Origin: a virus
Taxonomy: Duplodnaviria > Heunggongvirae > Uroviricota > Caudoviricetes
Virus record (IMG/VR): IMGVR_UViG_3300029288_000083
Coordinates: 1-30,129 of that record
DNA length: 30,129 bases
Reading direction: 5' to 3' (one strand)
The first letter of the stretch is position 1. The number at the start of each line of letters is the position of its first letter. Position numbers and translations under genes: made by a program. This document shows, piece by piece, positions 325 to 29,377 of the stretch. The notes under the pieces were generated by a model. That model saw only the letters and a program-made list of their open reading frames with translations, was not told the origin of the DNA and did no database searches.

Positions 325-846
325 TTAGTAATTAATATCAGTAATAACAGTTGGCAGAATTTTGTTAATTGTAATTTTGTTTGCAACACCAAGATCTGTT
401 TCATCGTAGTAAACTTGTGAGCCTTTTGGTATTGTGCATTCAACAATTACGTATTCTTTTTGAATGCCAGAATCAATAGCACGTCTAATGGTTTTGTAAA
501 AGTGGAAACCTTTAGCATAAACTGCAAGGCGTTTCTTTTTTAAATATTCGATTCTTTCTGTGTATGACCTAGGTCCCTTTATGTTATAATGGATTCCTAC
601 GATATCATCTGCGTGTGCAGTTGAGCCTGGGTTCAAATCGTTGCTGTCTAAGTCGATTTGCGAAATTCGAGTTTCGTAAAGGTTTCCTAGTATGTATTCA
701 AATCCTTGTGATGAGCTGCTAACTCGTAGTTCATCAGGTTCGTCTTTATCGTTTGTTATAAAGATTGGAAGTCATTCAACTTTTTTATAAACCGTGATAT
801 CTTCGGTAAGGATCTTCGGTGTAATTTGTTTAGTTACAAGACACAT
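325..846 (-). CDS. Phage hypothetical protein (paralog of 19343..19792) with an in-frame TGA at codon 25 (772-774): readthrough or pseudogene
   Basis: ATG at 846: MCLVTKQITPKILTEDITVYKKVE-TGA-LPIF... stays open and in frame into the track ORF 325..636. Both termini match the paralog (MCL.T.Q..P.I.....TVYK..E; GFHF...CTIPKGS.V..D.T.LG..NKI.IN). Confidence 0.75.
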
Positions 847-2740: not shown

Positions 2741-3535
2741 CTATGAGTCTTTAATAACTCTGCCTTTACTCCATCCGTTTGGAATAACATCAGTTATTTT
2801 TATTTTTTTATTTTGTTTCAATTCTATATTGTGAATCCACATAGTTCCATGCTGCGAATTTTTATTGCCTGCTTGTTTCCCTGCGTGCGATTCTCTCATT
2901 TTTTGTTTTGTTTCGTCCGAGTGACATCGATTTGACCATACGTATACATAACCGTTGTCGATTAATGATGGACAATCGTCGATTCCTACTCTAATAACTA
3001 TGCCATCACGCGATACCATATTTACTCTACGTTTTAATTTATCACAAACGTAATGCGAGCCCTTCTTTGTACTTTGCAATGATTTGAGTTCACCTGATAA
3101 ATAACGAGGATCATCAGTATTCACACAAAACACATTACCGTTTGAATCAATAACTGCTACTCTATTTAACGCAATTGGTTTTAATTCGCCGGATGCATAA
3201 CGAGGATCATCAATTTTAATAAGAAACGTATGTCCTTCTGAATTTTTAACCATTACACTACCTATTGTATGAAAGCCATTGAATGGAATATAATAATTCT
3301 CATTTAAAGGATCTTCAATACAATTTGTTATTTCTTCTGTTTCAAACTTTAAAGCATCTTCTCTGCAAATAAAGTCATCTTTAATAATTTCCTTTTTCAA
3401 CTTTGTCTTATCAGGTTTCCAAGTTTTCATTGAACCTAGATAAGAATCTAGAGTAGGATGAACTTCTGAACTTCTGGAACCTATATAGAATTGTTTAGTT
3501 TCTATATGTTCAATTCGATATACATAATGATACAT
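2741..3535 (-). CDS. GIY-YIG (Seg-like) free-standing homing endonuclease 1
   Basis: N-terminal YVY-x10-YIG-SR; two to three DDPRY.SGEL repeats; NUMOD3-like HSDETKQKMRESHAGK; C-terminal WIHN...IPNGW.KGR. Confidence 0.85.
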   Translation of the reverse strand: MYHYVYRIEHIETKQFYIGSRSSEVHPTLDSYLGSMKTWKPDKTKLKKEIIKDDFICREDALKFETEEITNCIEDPLNENYYIPFNGFHTIGSVMVKNSEGHTFLIKIDDPRYASGELKPIALNRVAVIDSNGNVFCVNTDDPRYLSGELKSLQSTKKGSHYVCDKLKRRVNMVSRDGIVIRVGIDDCPSLIDNGYVYVWSNRCHSDETKQKMRESHAGKQAGNKNSQHGTMWIHNIELKQNKKIKITDVIPNGWSKGRVIKDS

Positions 3536-3560
3536 ACATTTAAATATTTTTAATTATTTA

Positions 3561-3571
3561 TATTATATATC
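3561..3571 (-). promoter_or_regulatory. Class II promoter-like motif (GATATATAATA) upstream of endonuclease 1
   Basis: Related motifs precede all four endonucleases and occur at 5130, 16996, 18772 and 28203. Confidence 0.5.
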
Positions 3572-3595
3572 AAAATTGATATAGGAATAAATTAA

Positions 3596-3663
3596 AGTTT
3601 AATATAGGAATCGAACCTATCTCTACCGGACAGCCGGTGCTTCGCCTTCTAAGCTTTCCGAAC
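3596..3663 (-). tRNA. tRNA-like element with shortened anticodon arm and degenerate acceptor 3' strand (pseudo-tRNA)
   Basis: GTTCGGA AA GCTT AGAAGGCG AAGC A CCGG-CTGT-CCGG TAGAG ATAGG TTCGATT CCTAT ATTAAAC; 4-nt anticodon loop. Confidence 0.65.
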
Positions 3664-3682
3664 AATTAGAAAAAAGTAAAAT

Positions 3683-3787
3683 TTATTCGACTTTACTTTT
3701 TTGGTTTTTTGTATACTTACGAGTTCCATAGATAATTAAACCGATGAAAGCAACTGCAAGTACGATTGTTGTTGGTGTTGAGATCAT
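3683..3787 (-). CDS. 34-aa single-TM microprotein
   Basis: MISTPTTIVLAVAFIGLIIYGTRKYTKNQKSKVE*; below the track length cut-off. Confidence 0.55.
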   Translation of the reverse strand: MISTPTTIVLAVAFIGLIIYGTRKYTKNQKSKVE

Positions 3788-3789
3788 AT

Positions 3790-4410
3790 ATTGAGTTATT
3801 AAGTTACAAATAAAAACGAGAGCAGATACATAAACTTACTAGCTTTATATATCCTTAACTGATATTAATCGCCATGGCTCATGTGTACTTTACGGCCGGC
3901 AATAACAGTTGTGCACTCGTTTAACTCTATGGCCTCGTCAACCGCAGCTGTATTTAATTCTTTACCAGTTACAAACCGGTGATTAACTTATGGTCCATTA
4001 CTTTTTTCCACACGTCAATCGAATAGGGTAACACTATGCGCAATACCCAGTACCTTATTAACAGTTAGTACCATCCCGTAGTATCATTGATATGTTATAT
4101 TGCTAAGTGCAGTCCACCTATTTACCTCAACGCCTTTTGTTGAGAACAATACAATAAAACTCAGCACCACCTGTTAGTTTCAACTTTCAACCCCGGATTG
4201 GTGGTCCTAGGTATCTTGTCACATCAGTATCCGCTGGTGAGGGCGTCCGTCTCCCTCATTAATTGAACCGCTGGTCAAACCAAATACCGCGGGCATGCAG
4301 GTGCTTTTAACCTAACTATTTATATCGGACTGAACCGACGCCCATAATCTTTAATAACAATCGCTCCACATGTCTTGGCCATTAAACGACAAGGGCACCG
4401 TGTTCAACGG
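3790..4410 (-). ncRNA. Large structured ncRNA candidate (GOLLD/ROOL-class context)
   Basis: About 620 nt with no credible ORF, GC visibly higher than the flanks, many hairpins (GAGGG/CCCTC, ACCACC/GGTGGT, CTCAAC/GTTGAG, GGGTA/TACCC, ACCGGT/ACTGGT); sits within the tRNA-like cluster. Boundaries approximate. Confidence 0.55.
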
Positions 4411-4453
4411 CAATCCCTCGGATGGACTCGAACCCTCATATGAGGAGGGATTG
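4411..4453 (-). ncRNA. tRNA minihelix (acceptor stem plus T-arm only)
   Basis: CAATCCCTC/GAGGGATTG stem enclosing a 7-nt linker and the T-arm GAGGG TTCGAGT CCATC. Confidence 0.6.
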
Positions 4454-4466
4454 TTATTTTTATTTT

Positions 4467-4585
4467 GTATCGTCGGAGAGATTCGAACTCTAAAAACGCG
4501 AAACGGATTCGAACCGTATTACAACCCAAGCCGCTTTCCTTCACCCTACGCGGGCGGCATCATCCAGATACAATGCTTCACGATA
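4467..4585 (-). ncRNA. Composite tRNA-like element with two T-arms
   Basis: TATCGTG AA GCAT..ATGC, hairpin CGCCC/GGGTG, inner T-arm TACGG TTCGAAT CCGTT, outer T-arm AGAG TTCGAAT CTCT, 3' ACGATA. Confidence 0.6.
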
Positions 4586-4595
4586 TTTATTTTTG

Positions 4596-4670
4596 CTACG
4601 GTAGTAGGGTTCGAACCTACAATGTCATGGCCGATTTGACCAGGCGAATGCGCCAATATTCTGTACCGTT
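4596..4670 (-). tRNA. Pseudo-tRNA with aberrant anticodon loop
   Basis: Acceptor ACGGTA/TACCGT, D-stem GAAT/ATTC, T-arm GTAGG TTCGAAC CCTAC; anticodon arm TGGTC-AAATC-GGCCA has a 5-nt loop and no U33. Confidence 0.65.
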
Positions 4671-4741
4671 ACCGTTTCTGAATTGCTCACTACAACAATT
4701 CAGTAACATTACTTGAATAAACAAGTTTATTAATTGATAAG

Positions 4742-4807
4742 CTTCCGGAATAGGCTCCGACCCTATTTCTCCAACTGGCGCATCAATCCACTTAATGCTT
4801 TCCGGAT
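4742..4807 (-). tRNA. tRNA-like element with near-deleted anticodon arm
   Basis: ATCCGGA AA GCAT TAAGTGGATTG ATGC G CCAGTTGG AGAA ATAGG GTCGGAG CCTAT TCCGGAA G (66 nt). Confidence 0.65.
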
Positions 4808-5129
4808 ACCGTACGGAATTTGCTCACTACAACAAATTCAATACCGGTGTATTAATTGATAAAGTTTTAAAGGCAGTTGAGGTTTCCTTTTGCTATAAAA
4901 CCTCAACCTTGAATGCCTCATGTTAATCTGGAAACAAACCCTCTTGCGATTTATCGTCACAGCAAGTAAGAACGGAATGTCTTAAAGTTATCGAAACAAC
5001 CCAGGTAATACATACAACCTAGCAATTTTTTGAAAGAACAACAGGCAACCTGAAAAAACGCCGAGAGAAATTATGTATAAAAAGCGGCGGTAAAAAAATC
5101 AGGTTCCTGTTGTTAATATTTTAATTTAT

Positions 5130-5140
5130 TATTATATACA
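5130..5140 (-). promoter_or_regulatory. Class II promoter-like motif TGTATATAATA heading the ncRNA/tRNA-like locus
   Basis: Exact motif match, followed by a long hairpin leader. Confidence 0.55.
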
Positions 5141-5180
5141 GAAGTATTTCAAAGTTTCAAATTAATTTTGATTTTATTAA

Positions 5181-5218
5181 AAGGAAAACCTTTAACAAGA
5201 TTATTAAAGGTTTTCCTT
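5181..5218 (-). terminator. Perfect 15-bp inverted repeat, probable terminator
   Basis: AAGGAAAACCTTTAA-8nt-TTAAAGGTTTTCCTT, just downstream of the 5238 stop. Confidence 0.75.
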
Positions 5219-5237
5219 ACAGAACAATTATTGGAAA

Positions 5238-5669
5238 TTATTTAACAGGAGTGATTTTAGTTAAAACAACGTTTCCTTTTTCGTCAACGATATGTTTTAA
5301 TCCACGTTGAGCAAGTTTGTATTCAACCGCCTCTTTTGTTACGAAGTTTGCGTTTCTTTGAGCAAGTTTGTAATCGGCAGAGTTTTTCAATTTGTTTTCT
5401 GCGTTTTTAGCAGCGATAGATTCATTGTATTTTTTTTGGTCAGCGATTTGTTCGTCAAGAGATTTGATACGAGATTCTTCAGTTCTTCTAGCAACCTCAG
5501 CTTTATTTGAACGAAGTGTGTGTTCAAATTCAGAAACAGCTCTACCGAAGTGATCTTTATAACCTTTAGAATTTCCACATTTCATTTTTCCAACAGGAAA
5601 TTCAAATGAGTCAGCAACAGTTTGATTTTGTTTTGCGATTTTCGATTGGATTTTTTTAGAGTTTTTCAT
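5238..5669 (-). CDS. Basic coiled-coil hypothetical protein (early)
   Basis: ORF track; start reassigned to MKNSKK; directly behind promoter copy 2. Confidence 0.75.
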   Translation of the reverse strand: MKNSKKIQSKIAKQNQTVADSFEFPVGKMKCGNSKGYKDHFGRAVSEFEHTLRSNKAEVARRTEESRIKSLDEQIADQKKYNESIAAKNAENKLKNSADYKLAQRNANFVTKEAVEYKLAQRGLKHIVDEKGNVVLTKITPVK

Positions 5670-5881: not shown

Positions 5882-6622
5882 TTAATTATTTTTACTTTTT
5901 ATTTCCATCATTTCAGCTTTTGTTCTTCTTTGCTTTCGTTTGACATAAATCTTCCGTCCTATTAACCAGCCATCTGGTATCTCTGTATCTTTTTTAATCC
6001 TTTTATTTTTTATCAATTCATCGCAGTGAATCCATATAGTGCCATACGTACTAGTCTGTTCGCCCACATACTTTTTATTTGCATCACTTATTTTTATTTT
6101 AGTTGCCAAAGATTTAATGTGTCCTACGTTATAGTGAACTAGTTCGCCATTCGCATATCTAGGATCGTCAATAGATACAATTAATTTATTACCGTTTTCA
6201 TCCTTTACTAATGTTTTTCCTGTTCGCTTTCCTGCATTCATATGTTCGTACTGTCCACTTGTATATAACGGATCATTAATTGAAATTTTAAACAATTTGC
6301 CGTTTTCATCTTTTACCGTTGTCATACCTGCATTTGTATGTTTGCCGGTTTTATAAAAAGCTGTATTCGGAATTGCGTAGTTTTCATTTAATGGATTATT
6401 GATATGCTTACGAATTTCAACTTCTTCAAATTGCAATGCAGATATTCTATCAGAAAAGTTATCTTTAATAATTTCTTTTATTAATTTTGTTTTATCAGGT
6501 TTCCATGTTTTCATTGAACCTACATAGTTAACGTCGTCTATTGGTTTGCAGCTGCAAGTTCGAGATCCAATATAAAATTGATTCGTTTCTATGTGTGTTA
6601 CTTTATATACATAATAATGCAT
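5882..6622 (-). CDS. GIY-YIG homing endonuclease 2
   Basis: YVY-x10-YIG-SR; two VKDENG...DP.Y..G repeats; NUMOD3-like segment; WIH...IPDGWLIGR. Confidence 0.85.
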   Translation of the reverse strand: MHYYVYKVTHIETNQFYIGSRTCSCKPIDDVNYVGSMKTWKPDKTKLIKEIIKDNFSDRISALQFEEVEIRKHINNPLNENYAIPNTAFYKTGKHTNAGMTTVKDENGKLFKISINDPLYTSGQYEHMNAGKRTGKTLVKDENGNKLIVSIDDPRYANGELVHYNVGHIKSLATKIKISDANKKYVGEQTSTYGTIWIHCDELIKNKRIKKDTEIPDGWLIGRKIYVKRKQRRTKAEMMEIKSKNN

Positions 6623-6922: not shown

Positions 6923-7729
6923 TTAAATGTTGTAGTCCTGCCAGTTTGACTGTTTTTCAGTACTTACAACTTGAAGTCCGAATCTTTTGTTCCATTGTTC
7001 GCACAAATCGTACTCAAATTTTGCACAAAGGTCAAGTGCAGTCTTGTATTTATCAACAACCGACCATAATTTTGGTGGTGTTTTTTCATTTGGGTAACCG
7101 CCGGTACGATAATGGAAGTACTGTAGCATTTGCCAGAACTCTTTTGGGTCGCCGTTGCATTCAACAACATATGCATCATGATGTTTTTTCATCAATGGCC
7201 ATAACGTTGCGTTCAAACGTTGGCGGGTTGTTGCGCATTCATCAAGTAATGATGTGATACGTTTATCCATTGGGAAGTATTCAGGTTCACCTTCAGTAAC
7301 TGTTACGTTAGTATCAAGTGAAAGCAAACGGTTTATTTTATCGTCATTGGTTTGCATGTCGGTGTACAAGTGTTTTCTTGTAGCAGATTTCTTTGCGGAC
7401 GTAAGTGCGTCGGCATCCATTTTTTCTAAAAGATCTTTATCAATTTCAAGGTCGCCGAATAATTTTTTACGACGGATATTTACAAGTTCGAAGAAAAACG
7501 GTTTCGTGATTGAAACATTTTCTTCAAGCAATTCTTTAATCTCTGCCCATGCATCGATTTTAATTGAATCGGATCCTTCACAAATTTCAGTCAGTACAGC
7601 ATTTGCTGATTCCAAAAGTACTTGTGCCTTTTGAACTGTTGAGCGAGGAACTGAATTAAGTTGTGTTAGTTCAACAACTTCTTCTGCGTTTTCACGCATG
7701 CCTTTGGTAATCTTGATTTCTTTCGACAT
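6923..7729 (-). CDS. Hypothetical alpha-helical protein (268 aa)
   Basis: Long ORF; no motif recognised. Confidence 0.85.
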   Translation of the reverse strand: MSKEIKITKGMRENAEEVVELTQLNSVPRSTVQKAQVLLESANAVLTEICEGSDSIKIDAWAEIKELLEENVSITKPFFFELVNIRRKKLFGDLEIDKDLLEKMDADALTSAKKSATRKHLYTDMQTNDDKINRLLSLDTNVTVTEGEPEYFPMDKRITSLLDECATTRQRLNATLWPLMKKHHDAYVVECNGDPKEFWQMLQYFHYRTGGYPNEKTPPKLWSVVDKYKTALDLCAKFEYDLCEQWNKRFGLQVVSTEKQSNWQDYNI

Positions 7730-7757
7730 TAGTTTTAAGTATTAAGTTTAACAATAG

Positions 7758-7830
7758 TGGCGAGGACAGGATTCGAACCTGTTTCTCCGGATACTGAACG
7801 ACCAGGCTTCACCAACAAAGCTTCCTCGCC
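7758..7830 (-). tRNA. tRNA-like gene with UCA anticodon (candidate opal suppressor)
   Basis: GGCGAGG AA GCTT TGTTGGTG AAGC C TGGTC GT-TCA-GT ATCCG GAGAA ACAGG TTCGAAT CCTGT CCTCGCC A; 73 nt, canonical spacing, U33; anticodon stem has two mismatches; no encoded CCA. Confidence 0.7.
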
Positions 7831-7945
7831 ATATCAGTTTTATCTTAAGAACTGAAAAACTCAACCGAACTACGATTCGGACGAAGCTATTTGATTGCTC
7901 AGGGATACTTCGAGTTACGATCTACACGTCTGCAGCCTGCTTATC

Positions 7946-9367: not shown

Positions 9368-10168
9368 TTAAACTTTTTTTGTGTGTTCCCATCCATCTGG
9401 CAACTGTTCATCTTTACGTATTAACTTTCGTTTTTTTGTTTCGATATTGATAATCCAAATTCGTCCACTTCCTGAACCTTCAATCCAATCATTCGGAACA
9501 GATTCGTCTTTCTTTATTCTTTTCTTTTCATTTGTTAATGGGTTGAATATCCATCTTGTATTATAGCAAGACGTTTCGTTTCCTCTTTTTAATTTATTCT
9601 TGTTACTTATCTTTTTCTTTGTTTCTTCTTTTCGATTTCCAATTATTTGAACTGCTCGTTTTTCTTTTATTTTATCGAGCGCTTTATCTGTATGCTTATA
9701 ACCTTTTTGTATAAACATAACTTCGCCACTTAAATATCTTTCGTCAAAAACAGATACTTGAAATACGTTACCGTTAGTATCTTTTACTGTAACCATATCT
9801 TTATTCATCATAACAAATTCACCAGACAAATATCTAGGATCATCAATCGCAACTGAATAATGTTTTCCGTTTTTATCTTTAACTGTTACTCTACCATTTA
9901 CGCAATATCCAATACCAGGTATATGATAATTCTCATTTAACGGATCATTGATTACTTTTGTTATTTCTTCTGCTTCAAACTTCATTGCATCTTCTCTACA
10001 ATTAAAGTCATCTTTTAGAATTTCTTTTCTTAAATTTGCAACCTTCGGTTTCCAAACCTTCCAAGAACCTAAATAATCATCGAGTTCAGAATTTAACTTT
10101 GTTGAACGAGAACCGATATAGAATTGTCCTGTCTCTATATCGGTAACTTTGTATACGTAATGAATCAT
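9368..10168 (-). CDS. GIY-YIG homing endonuclease 3
   Basis: YVY-x10-YIG-SR; two VTVKD.NG...D.RYLSGE repeats; duplicated C-terminal WI.N...K.I.KDE..P..W module. Confidence 0.85.
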   Translation of the reverse strand: MIHYVYKVTDIETGQFYIGSRSTKLNSELDDYLGSWKVWKPKVANLRKEILKDDFNCREDAMKFEAEEITKVINDPLNENYHIPGIGYCVNGRVTVKDKNGKHYSVAIDDPRYLSGEFVMMNKDMVTVKDTNGNVFQVSVFDERYLSGEVMFIQKGYKHTDKALDKIKEKRAVQIIGNRKEETKKKISNKNKLKRGNETSCYNTRWIFNPLTNEKKRIKKDESVPNDWIEGSGSGRIWIINIETKKRKLIRKDEQLPDGWEHTKKV

Positions 10169-10732: not shown

Positions 10733-11572
10733 TTAAAAAAATTTTCTTCCTATTGTCCAGCCATCTGGAATATCGTCACCTTTTTTTATTAATGCGTTTT
10801 TCTTTGTATCTAAATTATGAATCCAAATTTTACCGCCATTAGCACTTAATTCGCCTTTATGCAATAAAGATTTCATTCTTTGTTTTTCTTTCGTTTCAAT
10901 ACTATGTGATGATCCTTTTTTTATGCCGACAAGTTCACCTGATAAAAATCTTTTATCGTCTTTAGAAACTTTAAAAACGTTTCCGTTATTATCTTTAACA
11001 GTAATTAATCCTTTATGCATTGACACAAGTTCCCCAGATAAATATCGAACATCGGTTTTTGCAACTGATATATTATTTCCTTCCGAATCTTTAACAGTAA
11101 CTAATCCTTTTGCTGTACTAACAAATTCGCCAGACTTAACTCTTGGATCATCAGAATATACAGAATACGTATTGCCATCTTTATCTTTAACTGGCATTTG
11201 CTTTGCTCTTACAAATAACAATTCTCCAGATACGTATCGAGGATCGTCAGTCTTAATTAAAAAAGTTTTGCCTTCTTTGTCTTTAACAACAATATGTCCG
11301 GCAGTATGAAAACTTAATCCTGGGACGCTATAATTTTCATTTAATTTATCGTCTATACAACTTTGTATAATTGCAATTTCTTTCTCTATTGCAGCAGCAC
11401 GTGATTCAAAAGAATCAAATAGAATTTCTTTTATTAATTTTGTTTTATCAGGTTTCCAGGTGCACATCGAACCTAAATAAAGATCTTGGCTTGGCAATAC
11501 GCTGCAGCTTCTTGATCCAATATAATATTGTCCAGTTTCTTTATGCGTTACTTTATATACGTAATGATACAT
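10733..11572 (-). CDS. GIY-YIG homing endonuclease 4
   Basis: YVY-x10-YIG-SR; four ~32-aa VKD..G...D.R..SGE repeats; HSIETKEKQR; WIHN...IPDGWTIGR. Confidence 0.85.
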   Translation of the reverse strand: MYHYVYKVTHKETGQYYIGSRSCSVLPSQDLYLGSMCTWKPDKTKLIKEILFDSFESRAAAIEKEIAIIQSCIDDKLNENYSVPGLSFHTAGHIVVKDKEGKTFLIKTDDPRYVSGELLFVRAKQMPVKDKDGNTYSVYSDDPRVKSGEFVSTAKGLVTVKDSEGNNISVAKTDVRYLSGELVSMHKGLITVKDNNGNVFKVSKDDKRFLSGELVGIKKGSSHSIETKEKQRMKSLLHKGELSANGGKIWIHNLDTKKNALIKKGDDIPDGWTIGRKFF

Positions 11573-19342: not shown

Positions 19343-19792
19343 TTATTTAGTTTTAATTTTTGGTGAATTGATAATGATTTTATTTGTAATGCCTAAACCA
19401 GTTTTATCGAAAACCACTTCGGATCCTTTTGGAATTGTACATGACAATATAGTATAATAGTTAGAATGCTGTTTTGCTCGTTTCTTGGTTACGCAGAAAT
19501 GATATCCTTGACCATACGATTGCAAACGTAAAGATTCAAATGATTGTCGTCTTGATGAAGAAGAACCATGTTCGTCTAATCCATACGCAATTGATGCAAT
19601 ATCATCGGAACAACTCATGTCTGTTGTTTTTCTGATTGGTTCATCATACAATTCATCAAGAAGCCATTTCATCGGGTAATACGGCGAGGAATAAATTGTC
19701 TTACCATTTAATGTCCACGTTTCAAACATTTTGTAAACGGTCATTTTTCGCTTCGTGATAATCGGCTCTTTTTGTTCGGTAATTAAACACAT
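19343..19792 (-). CDS. Phage hypothetical protein (paralog of 325..846)
   Basis: MCLITEQ..TVYK; GYHF; CTIPKGS; LGITNKIIIN. Confidence 0.8.
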   Translation of the reverse strand: MCLITEQKEPIITKRKMTVYKMFETWTLNGKTIYSSPYYPMKWLLDELYDEPIRKTTDMSCSDDIASIAYGLDEHGSSSSRRQSFESLRLQSYGQGYHFCVTKKRAKQHSNYYTILSCTIPKGSEVVFDKTGLGITNKIIINSPKIKTK

Positions 19793-28569: not shown

Positions 28570-29064
28570 TTAAATTAAATTATGATATACTTCTTTTGAT
28601 TTTTTTGACCACGATGGATTGGGACGATACGTTGAATCTAATAAGTATCGGTATAAATGTTCTCAGTCAGTTTCTGGGTCAAATCCTGCCTTATCATCAA
28701 ACAAAACATTAAAATACAATTTCTGTGTGTAATGTCCAAAAGATCCATGTGCAACAGATATCTCTGGATTTTCATTTACGTAATTAAATTTTATACCATC
28801 ATTATTGAATTGCTTCGTATATACTGCAATTTCAGAAGGATACGATGAAGTATACATAATTAGTATAATATCTTTTCTTTCTGATAATAATTGCAAAACT
28901 TCTTTTGCATACGGATAGTAATCAATTATCGGTTCTATTTTTCTATAATCTGGATATGAAACAGTTCCATGTATGTCGATACACCAATAAGTTTCAAACC
29001 ATTCTTTTTCTTCTGCGTGCGTCAGCATTTTGTGCACCCATTTAATGATTGGCGGAGTTGACAT
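28570..29064 (-). CDS. HAD-superfamily-like protein with an in-frame TGA at 28663-28665 (readthrough form ends at 28570)
   Basis: CIDIHGTV (motif I-like), YTSS (II), FDDKAGFDP (IV). After the TGA the frame continues EHLYRYLLDSTYRPNPSWSKKSKEVYHNLI-TAA, filling the gap to the next gene. Confidence 0.7.
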
Positions 29065-29377
29065 ATTCTAATAGTTTGCGTTGTAATTTTACAATGTTAG
29101 CACATTTTTCGTATTCTTCAATTGAAGCATAGTATGTAAGCATTTTTTTACTTATTGCAATAGAAGCTCGTTTTGACATTGCAACATCGACTTCTATTCC
29201 ACCAAAGCAAACAAAATTGAAACATGGAACTTCATCGTCCATGCTTAGTTCATCATTATTAATTACGTATTCAACAAAAGGGTACAGAATGCCGAAGATA
29301 TATTTGTTATCATCTACAGCGTCATGTATTTCTTGATTACTTTTAAATTCTCTATATATGAATACCGGAGTTTTCAT
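29042..29377 (-). CDS. Hypothetical protein with a C-terminal UVR-like helical motif
   Basis: YYASIEEYEKCANIVKLQRKL. Confidence 0.7.
   Translation of the reverse strand: MKTPVFIYREFKSNQEIHDAVDDNKYIFGILYPFVEYVINNDELSMDDEVPCFNFVCFGGIEVDVAMSKRASIAISKKMLTYYASIEEYEKCANIVKLQRKLLEYVNSANH

Follow-up and report, generated by a model that had tools for sequence, protein, structure and literature searches.

UGA is read by the tRNA-Trp(UCA) of code-4 bacteria (Mycoplasma, Spiroplasma) and by the opal suppressors derived from E. coli tRNA-Trp, and in phage Q-beta, programmed UGA read-through by the host tRNA-Trp extends the coat protein into the A1 protein. Recoding of TGA to Trp and of TAG to Gln has been described in many phage clades, with suppressor tRNAs present in 35-40% of the recoded phage genomes (Borges et al., bioRxiv 10.1101/2021.08.26.457843). 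The Agate and Jade phages are TGA-recoded, and a standard-code relative of Agate has acquired a TGA suppressor; TAG recoding is known in the Lak and crAss-like phages (bioRxiv 10.1101/2021.08.26.457843). The path proposed for these transitions leads from low GC content to rare TGA and TAG stops, then to the acquisition of a suppressor tRNA and finally to the accumulation of in-frame stops (bioRxiv 10.1101/2021.08.26.457843). In nature, intermediates on the way from the standard code to stop codon reassignment are seldom caught.

Here we describe a 30,129-nt stretch of DNA (hereinafter the window) that comprises nucleotides 1-30,129 of a 155,559-nt linear IMG/VR virus record (hereinafter the contig). 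The window contains a tRNA-shaped gene whose positions 34-36 are UCA, hereinafter tRNA(UCA), and two genes that, as comparison with homologs shows, are each interrupted by an in-frame TGA, with no wider recoding in the roughly 180 kb examined (Table 1). Both interrupted genes are small and accessory and are located on either side of tRNA(UCA), 7 and 21 kb away. Our preferred reading, to which we give an even chance, is that a weak opal suppressor encoded by the phage rescues the two accessory genes. Under this scenario, tRNA(UCA) would be an opal suppressor, probably weak and probably inserting Trp, with the help of which ribosomes would read through the TGA codon in each of the two genes, which are intact in all other respects; the phage would be at an early stage, with the suppressor acquired and the first in-frame stops tolerated, and with TGA still ending 18 other genes. 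Given that no other decoder of the contig is as atypical as tRNA(UCA) and that no ortholog was found, its processing, charging and decoding of UGA, the inserted residue and the rescue of both genes are what we infer from the comparisons described below.

Table 1. Features of the window (positions in window coordinates)
Feature	Position	Strand	Basis or remark
tRNA-shaped gene, anticodon UCA	7758..7830	-	ARAGORN; Rfam RF00005; RNAfold; comparison with the 51 other contig tRNAs
Terminator-like hairpin and T-run	7865..7880	-	34 nt upstream of tRNA(UCA)
268-aa gene	6923..7729	-	starts 28 nt past the tRNA(UCA) 3' end
Gene of 173 codons, family N-terminus MCLVT.Q	325..846	-	TGA at codon 25
In-frame TGA no. 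1, context GAA TGA CTT	772..774	-	homolog alignment
HAD-like phosphatase-family gene (PHROG 1238), 164 codons	28570..29064	-	TGA at codon 134
In-frame TGA no. 2, context GAC TGA GAA	28663..28665	-	alignment; three phage homologs
Terminal TGA, ATGA overlap, TGA AAG AAA TAA	15441..15443	-	ordinary stop
Terminal TGA, ATGA overlap, TGA TAA	25557..25559	-	ordinary stop
Terminal TGA, ATGA overlap	29374..29376	-	next in-frame stop is TAG, 19 codons on
tRNA-like element	3596..3663	-	eye and alignment
tRNA-like element, two T arms	4467..4585	-	eye and alignment
tRNA-like element, 9-nt loop	4596..4670	-	about 24 bits with the tRNA model
tRNA-like element	4742..4807	-	eye and alignment
HNH homing-endonuclease paralogs (four)	2741-3535, 5882-6622, 9368-10168, 10733-11572		
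TATATTTG octamer, intergenic	2142, 5719, 5833, 6826, 8883, 10673	-	
TATATTTG octamer, further sites	11628, 18255, 23508, 26289, 27728	-	

The phage and its probable host

The contig is 49% complete as estimated by CheckV, with a GC content of 32% and about 97% of the genes on the minus strand. Among the encoded proteins are a tail sheath protein, a T4-type large terminase, topoisomerase II, an SbcC-like nuclease and an NAD-dependent ligase. Other assemblies contain contigs of this phage of 379 kb and 425 kb, from which the full genome size is put at about 400 kb; the phage is a very large myovirus. Its terminase is closest to those of the uncultured huge phages LR756500 (462 kb, 44% identity) and LR756501 (735 kb, 35% identity) and is related to the single clade that unites the largest phages with the TAG-recoded Lak phages (Al-Shayeb et al., PMC7162821). 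The phage is present in landfill, groundwater and wastewater runs of several studies.

The host probably belongs to Bacteroidota, as suggested by a phage protein that has a T9SS sorting domain and by the recurrent intergenic TATATTTG boxes on the minus strand (Table 1). This octamer matches the Bacteroidota -7 promoter box TAnnTTTG; the total count of TAnnTTTG is 65 vs 51 in shuffled sequences, which is only a slight excess. Four paralogous HNH genes for homing endonucleases are present (Table 1), and insertions of this kind vary between strains, with one of about 790 nt at window positions 4587-4592 in L015 and another of about 727 nt at contig positions 30416/30417 in L012 and L013.

An atypical tRNA gene with a UCA anticodon

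ARAGORN identifies a single tRNA in the window (7757-7830, minus strand, anticodon tca at position 34), and the same element matches the Rfam tRNA family RF00005 (7830..7758, minus strand, 39.7 bits, E 3e-5) above the gathering score of 29. Both calls agree with the 73-nt cloverleaf with U33 and TCA at positions 34-36 that was proposed in the initial annotation, and place it on the minus strand. The acceptor (7/7), D (4/4) and T (5/5, with a TTCGAAT loop) stems are all perfect, the elbow is kept (G18G19 and T54T55C56), and the anticodon loop is GUUCAGU. Together, the two calls with U33 and UCA, the perfect helices and the kept elbow favour the suppressor reading. The variable loop consists of 5 nt, the acceptor and T stems are in the 7/5 arrangement, and CCA is not encoded.

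ARAGORN labels the gene 'SeC', and the label rests solely on the UCA anticodon, the only feature that speaks for selenocysteine insertion. Bacterial tRNA-Sec has a long variable arm and the 8/5 acceptor/T form, neither of which is compatible with a 73-nt tRNA with a 5-nt variable loop and the 7/5 arrangement. Furthermore, the TGA at 28663-28665 corresponds to an invariant Trp rather than to Cys or Sec and is not followed by a stable hairpin (z = 0.33), so that we consider the probability of selenocysteine insertion to be negligible.

The weakest part of the molecule is the anticodon arm. Only 3 of the 5 pairs of the anticodon stem are standard, with adjacent U30.U40 and C31.A39 mismatches, exactly as described at the outset; the Rfam model passes over the entire arm, and in the minimum-energy fold obtained with RNAfold, the arm has a 4-bp stem (26-29/41-44) and an 11-nt loop. 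The identity of bacterial tRNA-Trp is determined by the discriminator G73 along with C35 and A36. In tRNA(UCA), C35 and A36 are combined with A73 and G1-C72, whereas the phage's own tRNA-Trp(CCA) has G73 and A1-U72, which bears out the earlier caveat that A73 is not the usual tRNA-Trp discriminator.

Among the 52 contig tRNAs found by ARAGORN, none deviates as strongly as tRNA(UCA). Its score of 39.7 bits, against a median near 59, falls in the lowest tenth of the 54 contig matches to RF00005. All anticodon-stem positions are paired in 44 of the 52 tRNAs, one is unpaired in 7, and tRNA(UCA) alone has two; among the contig tRNAs with A36, it is also the only one with G37 instead of A37. The nearest paralog is a tRNA-Met(CAU) at contig positions 66342-66415 (72% identity), which has an identical acceptor 5' strand and the same rare G32; tRNA(UCA) shows about 70% identity to many tRNAs, and apart from the shared acceptor strand, there is no decisive indication of its ancestry.

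The poor anticodon arm, G37, the non-Trp identity elements and the low score all weigh against suppression. The main alternative is a tRNA-like RNA that does not decode, or else a decaying copy of a tRNA of the CAU type, with UCA in the loop by chance; the two TGA codons would then be recent, tolerated nonsense mutations in dispensable accessory genes or would be read at a low level by tRNA-Trp(CCA). We regard this as less likely than suppression, even though the lowest-tier score, the arm skipped by the Rfam model, and the unique combination of two adjacent stem mismatches with G37 are what would be expected of a non-decoding RNA, and the acceptor strand and G32 shared with tRNA-Met(CAU) are what would be expected of a decayed copy. 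The three perfect helices are at odds with decay, as is the presence of A8/U14 in place of the U8-A14 tertiary pair, which reads as a two-sided swap rather than random loss. Moreover, the D arm with A8A9 and GCTT/AAGC is common among normal phage decoders: we detected it at 33 IMG/VR phage loci (L041-L073) among otherwise ordinary tRNAs (Met, Lys, Arg, Trp, Ala and Thr) of uncultured phages, many of which are very large; A there replaces the near-universal U8 and is combined with A14. Hence A8 alone is no marker of a non-decoder. At four of these loci, a tRNA(CUA) is encoded as well.

The immediate neighbourhood of tRNA(UCA) contains additional tRNA-like elements. On the minus strand, positions 3536-5240 make up a 1.7-kb region without ORFs that is packed with T-arm-like modules and tRNA-like elements (Table 1), none of which reaches an Rfam threshold, the best scores with the tRNA model being about 24 bits (3596-3663 and 4596-4670). 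The elements at 3596-3663, 4467-4585 and 4742-4807 have A8A9 and a GCWT/AWGC D stem as in tRNA(UCA), whereas those at 3596-3663, 4596-4670 and 4742-4807 keep the D and T arms next to a shrunken or expanded anticodon arm. The existence of such sub-threshold RNAs with reduced anticodon arms and shared features only 2.5-4 kb away counts against the suppressor reading and in favour of a non-decoding RNA or a decayed copy. In retaining the D and T arms with an aberrant anticodon arm and A8A9, tRNA(UCA) resembles both these elements and the YrlA-type Y RNAs. It differs from both in possessing a full 7-bp acceptor stem with a discriminator and, provided that both mismatches are stacked, an anticodon loop of 7 nt that includes U33, and from the local elements (about 24 bits) also in exceeding the Rfam tRNA threshold. 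It is conceivable, albeit improbable in our estimate, that the phage remodelled a CAU-type tRNA into an opal decoder with a deliberately loosened anticodon arm, that this decoder is part of a local family of re-engineered tRNA-like RNAs, and that its weak or timed expression gates a small set of nearby TGA-interrupted accessory genes as a regulatory read-through switch, in place of a code change.

Searches for orthologs of tRNA(UCA) yielded none, which is compatible with a non-decoding or decayed copy and weighs against a suppressor. No matches were obtained in IMG/VR with a pattern of the anticodon arm and T arm or in the JGI metagenomes with a pattern of the D arm, UCA and T arm. A relaxed pattern gave one match, located inside a GC-rich ORF and dismissed as a chance hit. 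Nothing was found by blastn against 50,697 phage records, and in LR756500 and LR756501, searched both at the DNA level and with patterns, only ordinary tRNAs and no tRNA(UCA) ortholog came up. All these patterns are narrow, so that the negatives are weak. In LR756501, at about 204.2 kb (L040:1486-1576), ARAGORN reports a 91-nt tRNA-like gene with the four-base anticodon ttac that adjoins a tRNA-Trp. In the only relative found for the gene 6923..7729 (57% identity), there is no tRNA at the syntenic upstream spot, which again disfavours suppression.

Between the terminator-like hairpin and tRNA(UCA), there is no sigma-70-type or TAnnTTTG box. RNA sequencing runs cover a small share, or fewer than five words, of the tRNA(UCA) stretch, too few to bear on expression.

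Two TGA-interrupted genes and the stop codons of the contig

Comparison with homologs shows that both genes span the TGA, as initially annotated. In the HAD-like phosphatase-family gene, the TGA aligns with Trp in all 39 aligned metagenomic homologs (48-69% identity) and in the three phage homologs that were read directly, and is one transition away from TGG. Past the TGA, there are 30 more codons in which the invariant W152 is retained along with the near-invariant P148 and K155; the frame closes 10 nt short of the next gene. In the gene 325..846, the 24 codons ahead of the TGA encode the conserved N-terminus of the family, which is also present in four metagenomic homologs and in a paralog encoded in the window (19343-19792). 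There is no start codon within 45 codons past this TGA, although that stretch scores high as coding. The residue aligned with the TGA varies, being Leu in a 65%-identical ortholog and Val, Gly and Val in others, and the paralog has Trp one position further on. The 70 nt of minus-strand sequence from this TGA (705-774) fold better than shuffled sequences (z = -2.7), with an A/U-rich hairpin that begins 10 nt past the TGA. Because gene callers that assume code 11 truncate both genes, public protein sets contain only the truncated products, of 103 and 121 aa.

We carried out three scans for in-frame stops, namely of same-frame neighbours, of ORFs with TGA or TAG as sense, and of intergenic gaps, over about 180 kb (the 155-kb record and about 25 kb walked into in other assemblies). 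The TGAs at 772-774 and 28663-28665 are the only convincing in-frame stops, affecting 2 of about 205 genes, and no in-frame TAA or TAG was found in the sequence scanned. Three other TGAs were rejected as read-through sites: the one at contig position 42865 has a Met start 10 codons past it, the one at 48739 overlaps a tRNA, and L029:10394-10396, 6.8 kb beyond the window start, is a true stop given that 722 homologs end there. A possible, weak third candidate is contig 78182-78184 (L006:8182-8184, minus strand), where, inside a 94-nt gap, a TGA separates an 18-codon ORF from an 85-aa gene (77905-78162).

That both genes span the TGA, one of them at an invariant Trp, and that the only in-frame stops are of the kind that matches the anticodon, favours the suppressor reading. 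The exact coincidence of one stop with an invariant Trp, the integrity of both downstream frames in an AT-rich genome, and the lack of any other pseudogene-like in-frame stop in the roughly 180 kb all count against tolerated nonsense. Under the codon usage of this genome, the probability that two random nonsense changes both yield TGA is about 0.066; a TGA nonsense change falls on a Trp codon in about 8-15% of the cases; and a random loop triplet is UCA with the probability of 1/64. Taken together, these values favour a functional connection between the tRNA and the TGA codons over a non-decoding or decayed copy, for which the UCA triplet and the match of both stops (the stops alone accounting for the 0.066) are chance events. 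However, very many windows were scanned, so such coincidences are expected somewhere, a point on the side of a non-decoding RNA or a decayed copy.

Across at least five independent assemblies (ENA, Logan, JGI and megahit; different samples), tRNA(UCA) and the two TGAs do not differ by a single letter and therefore are not assembly errors. Specifically, the TGA at 772-774 is identical in four other assemblies, and the TGA at 28663-28665 along with the entire gene is letter-identical in L012-L014. The possibility, considered initially, that TGG (or TTA) was misread as TGA in sequencing or assembly is refuted at the assembly level, given that different samples yield the identical sequence with megahit, Logan and JGI, and we attach next to no weight to it. 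Elsewhere, these assemblies, which come from landfill, groundwater and other samples, do show SNPs and insertions of homing endonucleases, and the identity of tRNA(UCA) and both TGAs against this background speaks for suppression. Outside these insertions, the strains are 99.8-100% identical. With all strains at least 99.8% identical, conservation is uninformative on selection, and the nonsense mutations could be recent; this lack of evolutionary depth weighs against suppression and suits a non-decoding or decayed copy.

A genome-wide code change (code 4) is absent: only 2 of about 205 genes contain an in-frame TGA, treating TGA as sense confers no density advantage over the other stops, and 18 TGAs are terminal. 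The coding density increases from 0.805 under code 11 to 0.833 with TGA as sense, no more than with TAG or TAA as sense, and most of the gain comes from spurious plus-strand ORFs; thus, the comparison of code 11 with code 4 suggested in the initial annotation does not support recoding. Among the 205 ORFs of the contig, 172 end with TAA (84%), 18 with a true terminal TGA (9%; the raw count of 19 includes the in-frame TGA at 28663) and 14 with TAG (7%), and 55 of the 63 ORFs in the window end with TAA, in line with the predominance of TAA noted originally. The contexts originally quoted for the three terminal TGAs of the window, all of them ATGA overlaps, are also correct (Table 1), but the claim that terminal TGAs are avoided or backed up is not supported across the contig. 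After TGA, a further in-frame stop follows at a median of 5 codons, vs 6 after TAA, and in seven cases, the next stop after a terminal TGA is another TGA. The absence of adaptation of the terminal TGAs to suppression disfavours a suppressor, and so does the lack of TrpRS (PF00579), release factor (PF00472) and CCA-adding enzyme (PF01743) genes in the 155-kb record, which is 49% complete (CheckV).

The earlier proposal of partial UGA decoding or incipient recoding is supported in part: it fits the coexistence of a UCA tRNA with two in-frame TGAs, one of which is at an invariant Trp, and the lack of in-frame TAA or TAG in the sequence scanned. An alignment of in-frame TGAs with conserved residues is found at 28663-28665 and not at 772-774, where the residue varies, and there are no further cases in about 180 kb.

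A second suppressor-type tRNA, with the anticodon CUA, is encoded at contig positions 124588-124661 (L008:14588-14661, minus strand). It is canonical (63.1 bits), with a single A31.C39 mismatch, and is closest to tRNA-Lys(UUU); with no in-frame TAG in the roughly 180 kb, it has no visible target in the phage. Thus, the stop-reading anticodons of the contig are UCA and CUA, with none for UAA. This combination could be taken to mean that the two tRNAs disturb UGA and UAG termination in the host or in competing phages at takeover, with the phage itself protected by TAA and the in-frame TGAs being harmless by-products. The 84% share of TAA among the phage stops and the well-formed tRNA(CUA) without an in-frame TAG target in the part examined are compatible with this possibility, which we nevertheless hold to be doubtful: the 18 TGA and 14 TAG gene ends without back-up stops imply that the phage is not shielded from its own suppressors, and tRNA(UCA) looks like a poor decoder.

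Relation to recoded phages and implications

The suppressor reading draws further support from the low GC content, the 84% share of TAA and the second suppressor-type tRNA(CUA), all of which fit the path proposed by Borges et al. For a standard-code phage with an acquired suppressor, the relevant observations here are GC of 32%, stop codon shares of 84% TAA, 9% TGA and 7% TAG, the presence of tRNA(UCA) and tRNA(CUA), and two in-frame TGAs. The phage accordingly fits the intermediate stage in that scheme, an idea that is already known (Borges et al., bioRxiv 10.1101/2021.08.26.457843). It resembles the recoded phages in the low GC, the TAA-dominated stops and the stop-reading tRNA, in the in-frame stops of the matching kind, one of them at a Trp as in TGA-to-Trp recoding, and in the probable host, which is a standard-code one, probably of Bacteroidota. 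It differs from them in several respects: 2 of about 205 genes are affected here, as opposed to a large share in the recoded phages; both are small, accessory and near the tRNA rather than structural, late or lysis genes; 18 genes still end at TGA; the anticodon arm of tRNA(UCA) appears defective and its architecture is unusual; the 155 kb contain no 'code change module' with TrpRS or RF1; and the well-formed tRNA(CUA) occurs without an in-frame TAG in the part examined.

With the tRNA-Trp(UCA) of code-4 bacteria and the E. coli opal suppressors, tRNA(UCA) would share the use of a UCA anticodon for UGA, probably decoded as Trp. Unlike those, it is not a tRNA-Trp derivative, having A73 and G1-C72 in place of G73 and A1-U72, and its nearest paralog is of the CAU type (72%) rather than the phage tRNA-Trp(CCA). 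The likeness to Q-beta is that a full-length phage product would require occasional decoding of UGA as Trp. Q-beta, however, relies on a host tRNA and its short product is functional too, whereas here a dedicated tRNA gene is present and the truncated products would miss conserved parts.

If tRNA(UCA) works, UGA decoding would be compatible with mismatches in the anticodon stem, with G37 and with an acceptor identity other than that of Trp, and this phage would exemplify the first step predicted for stop codon reassignment, in which the suppressor is present and the first in-frame stops are fixed while TGA still terminates other genes.
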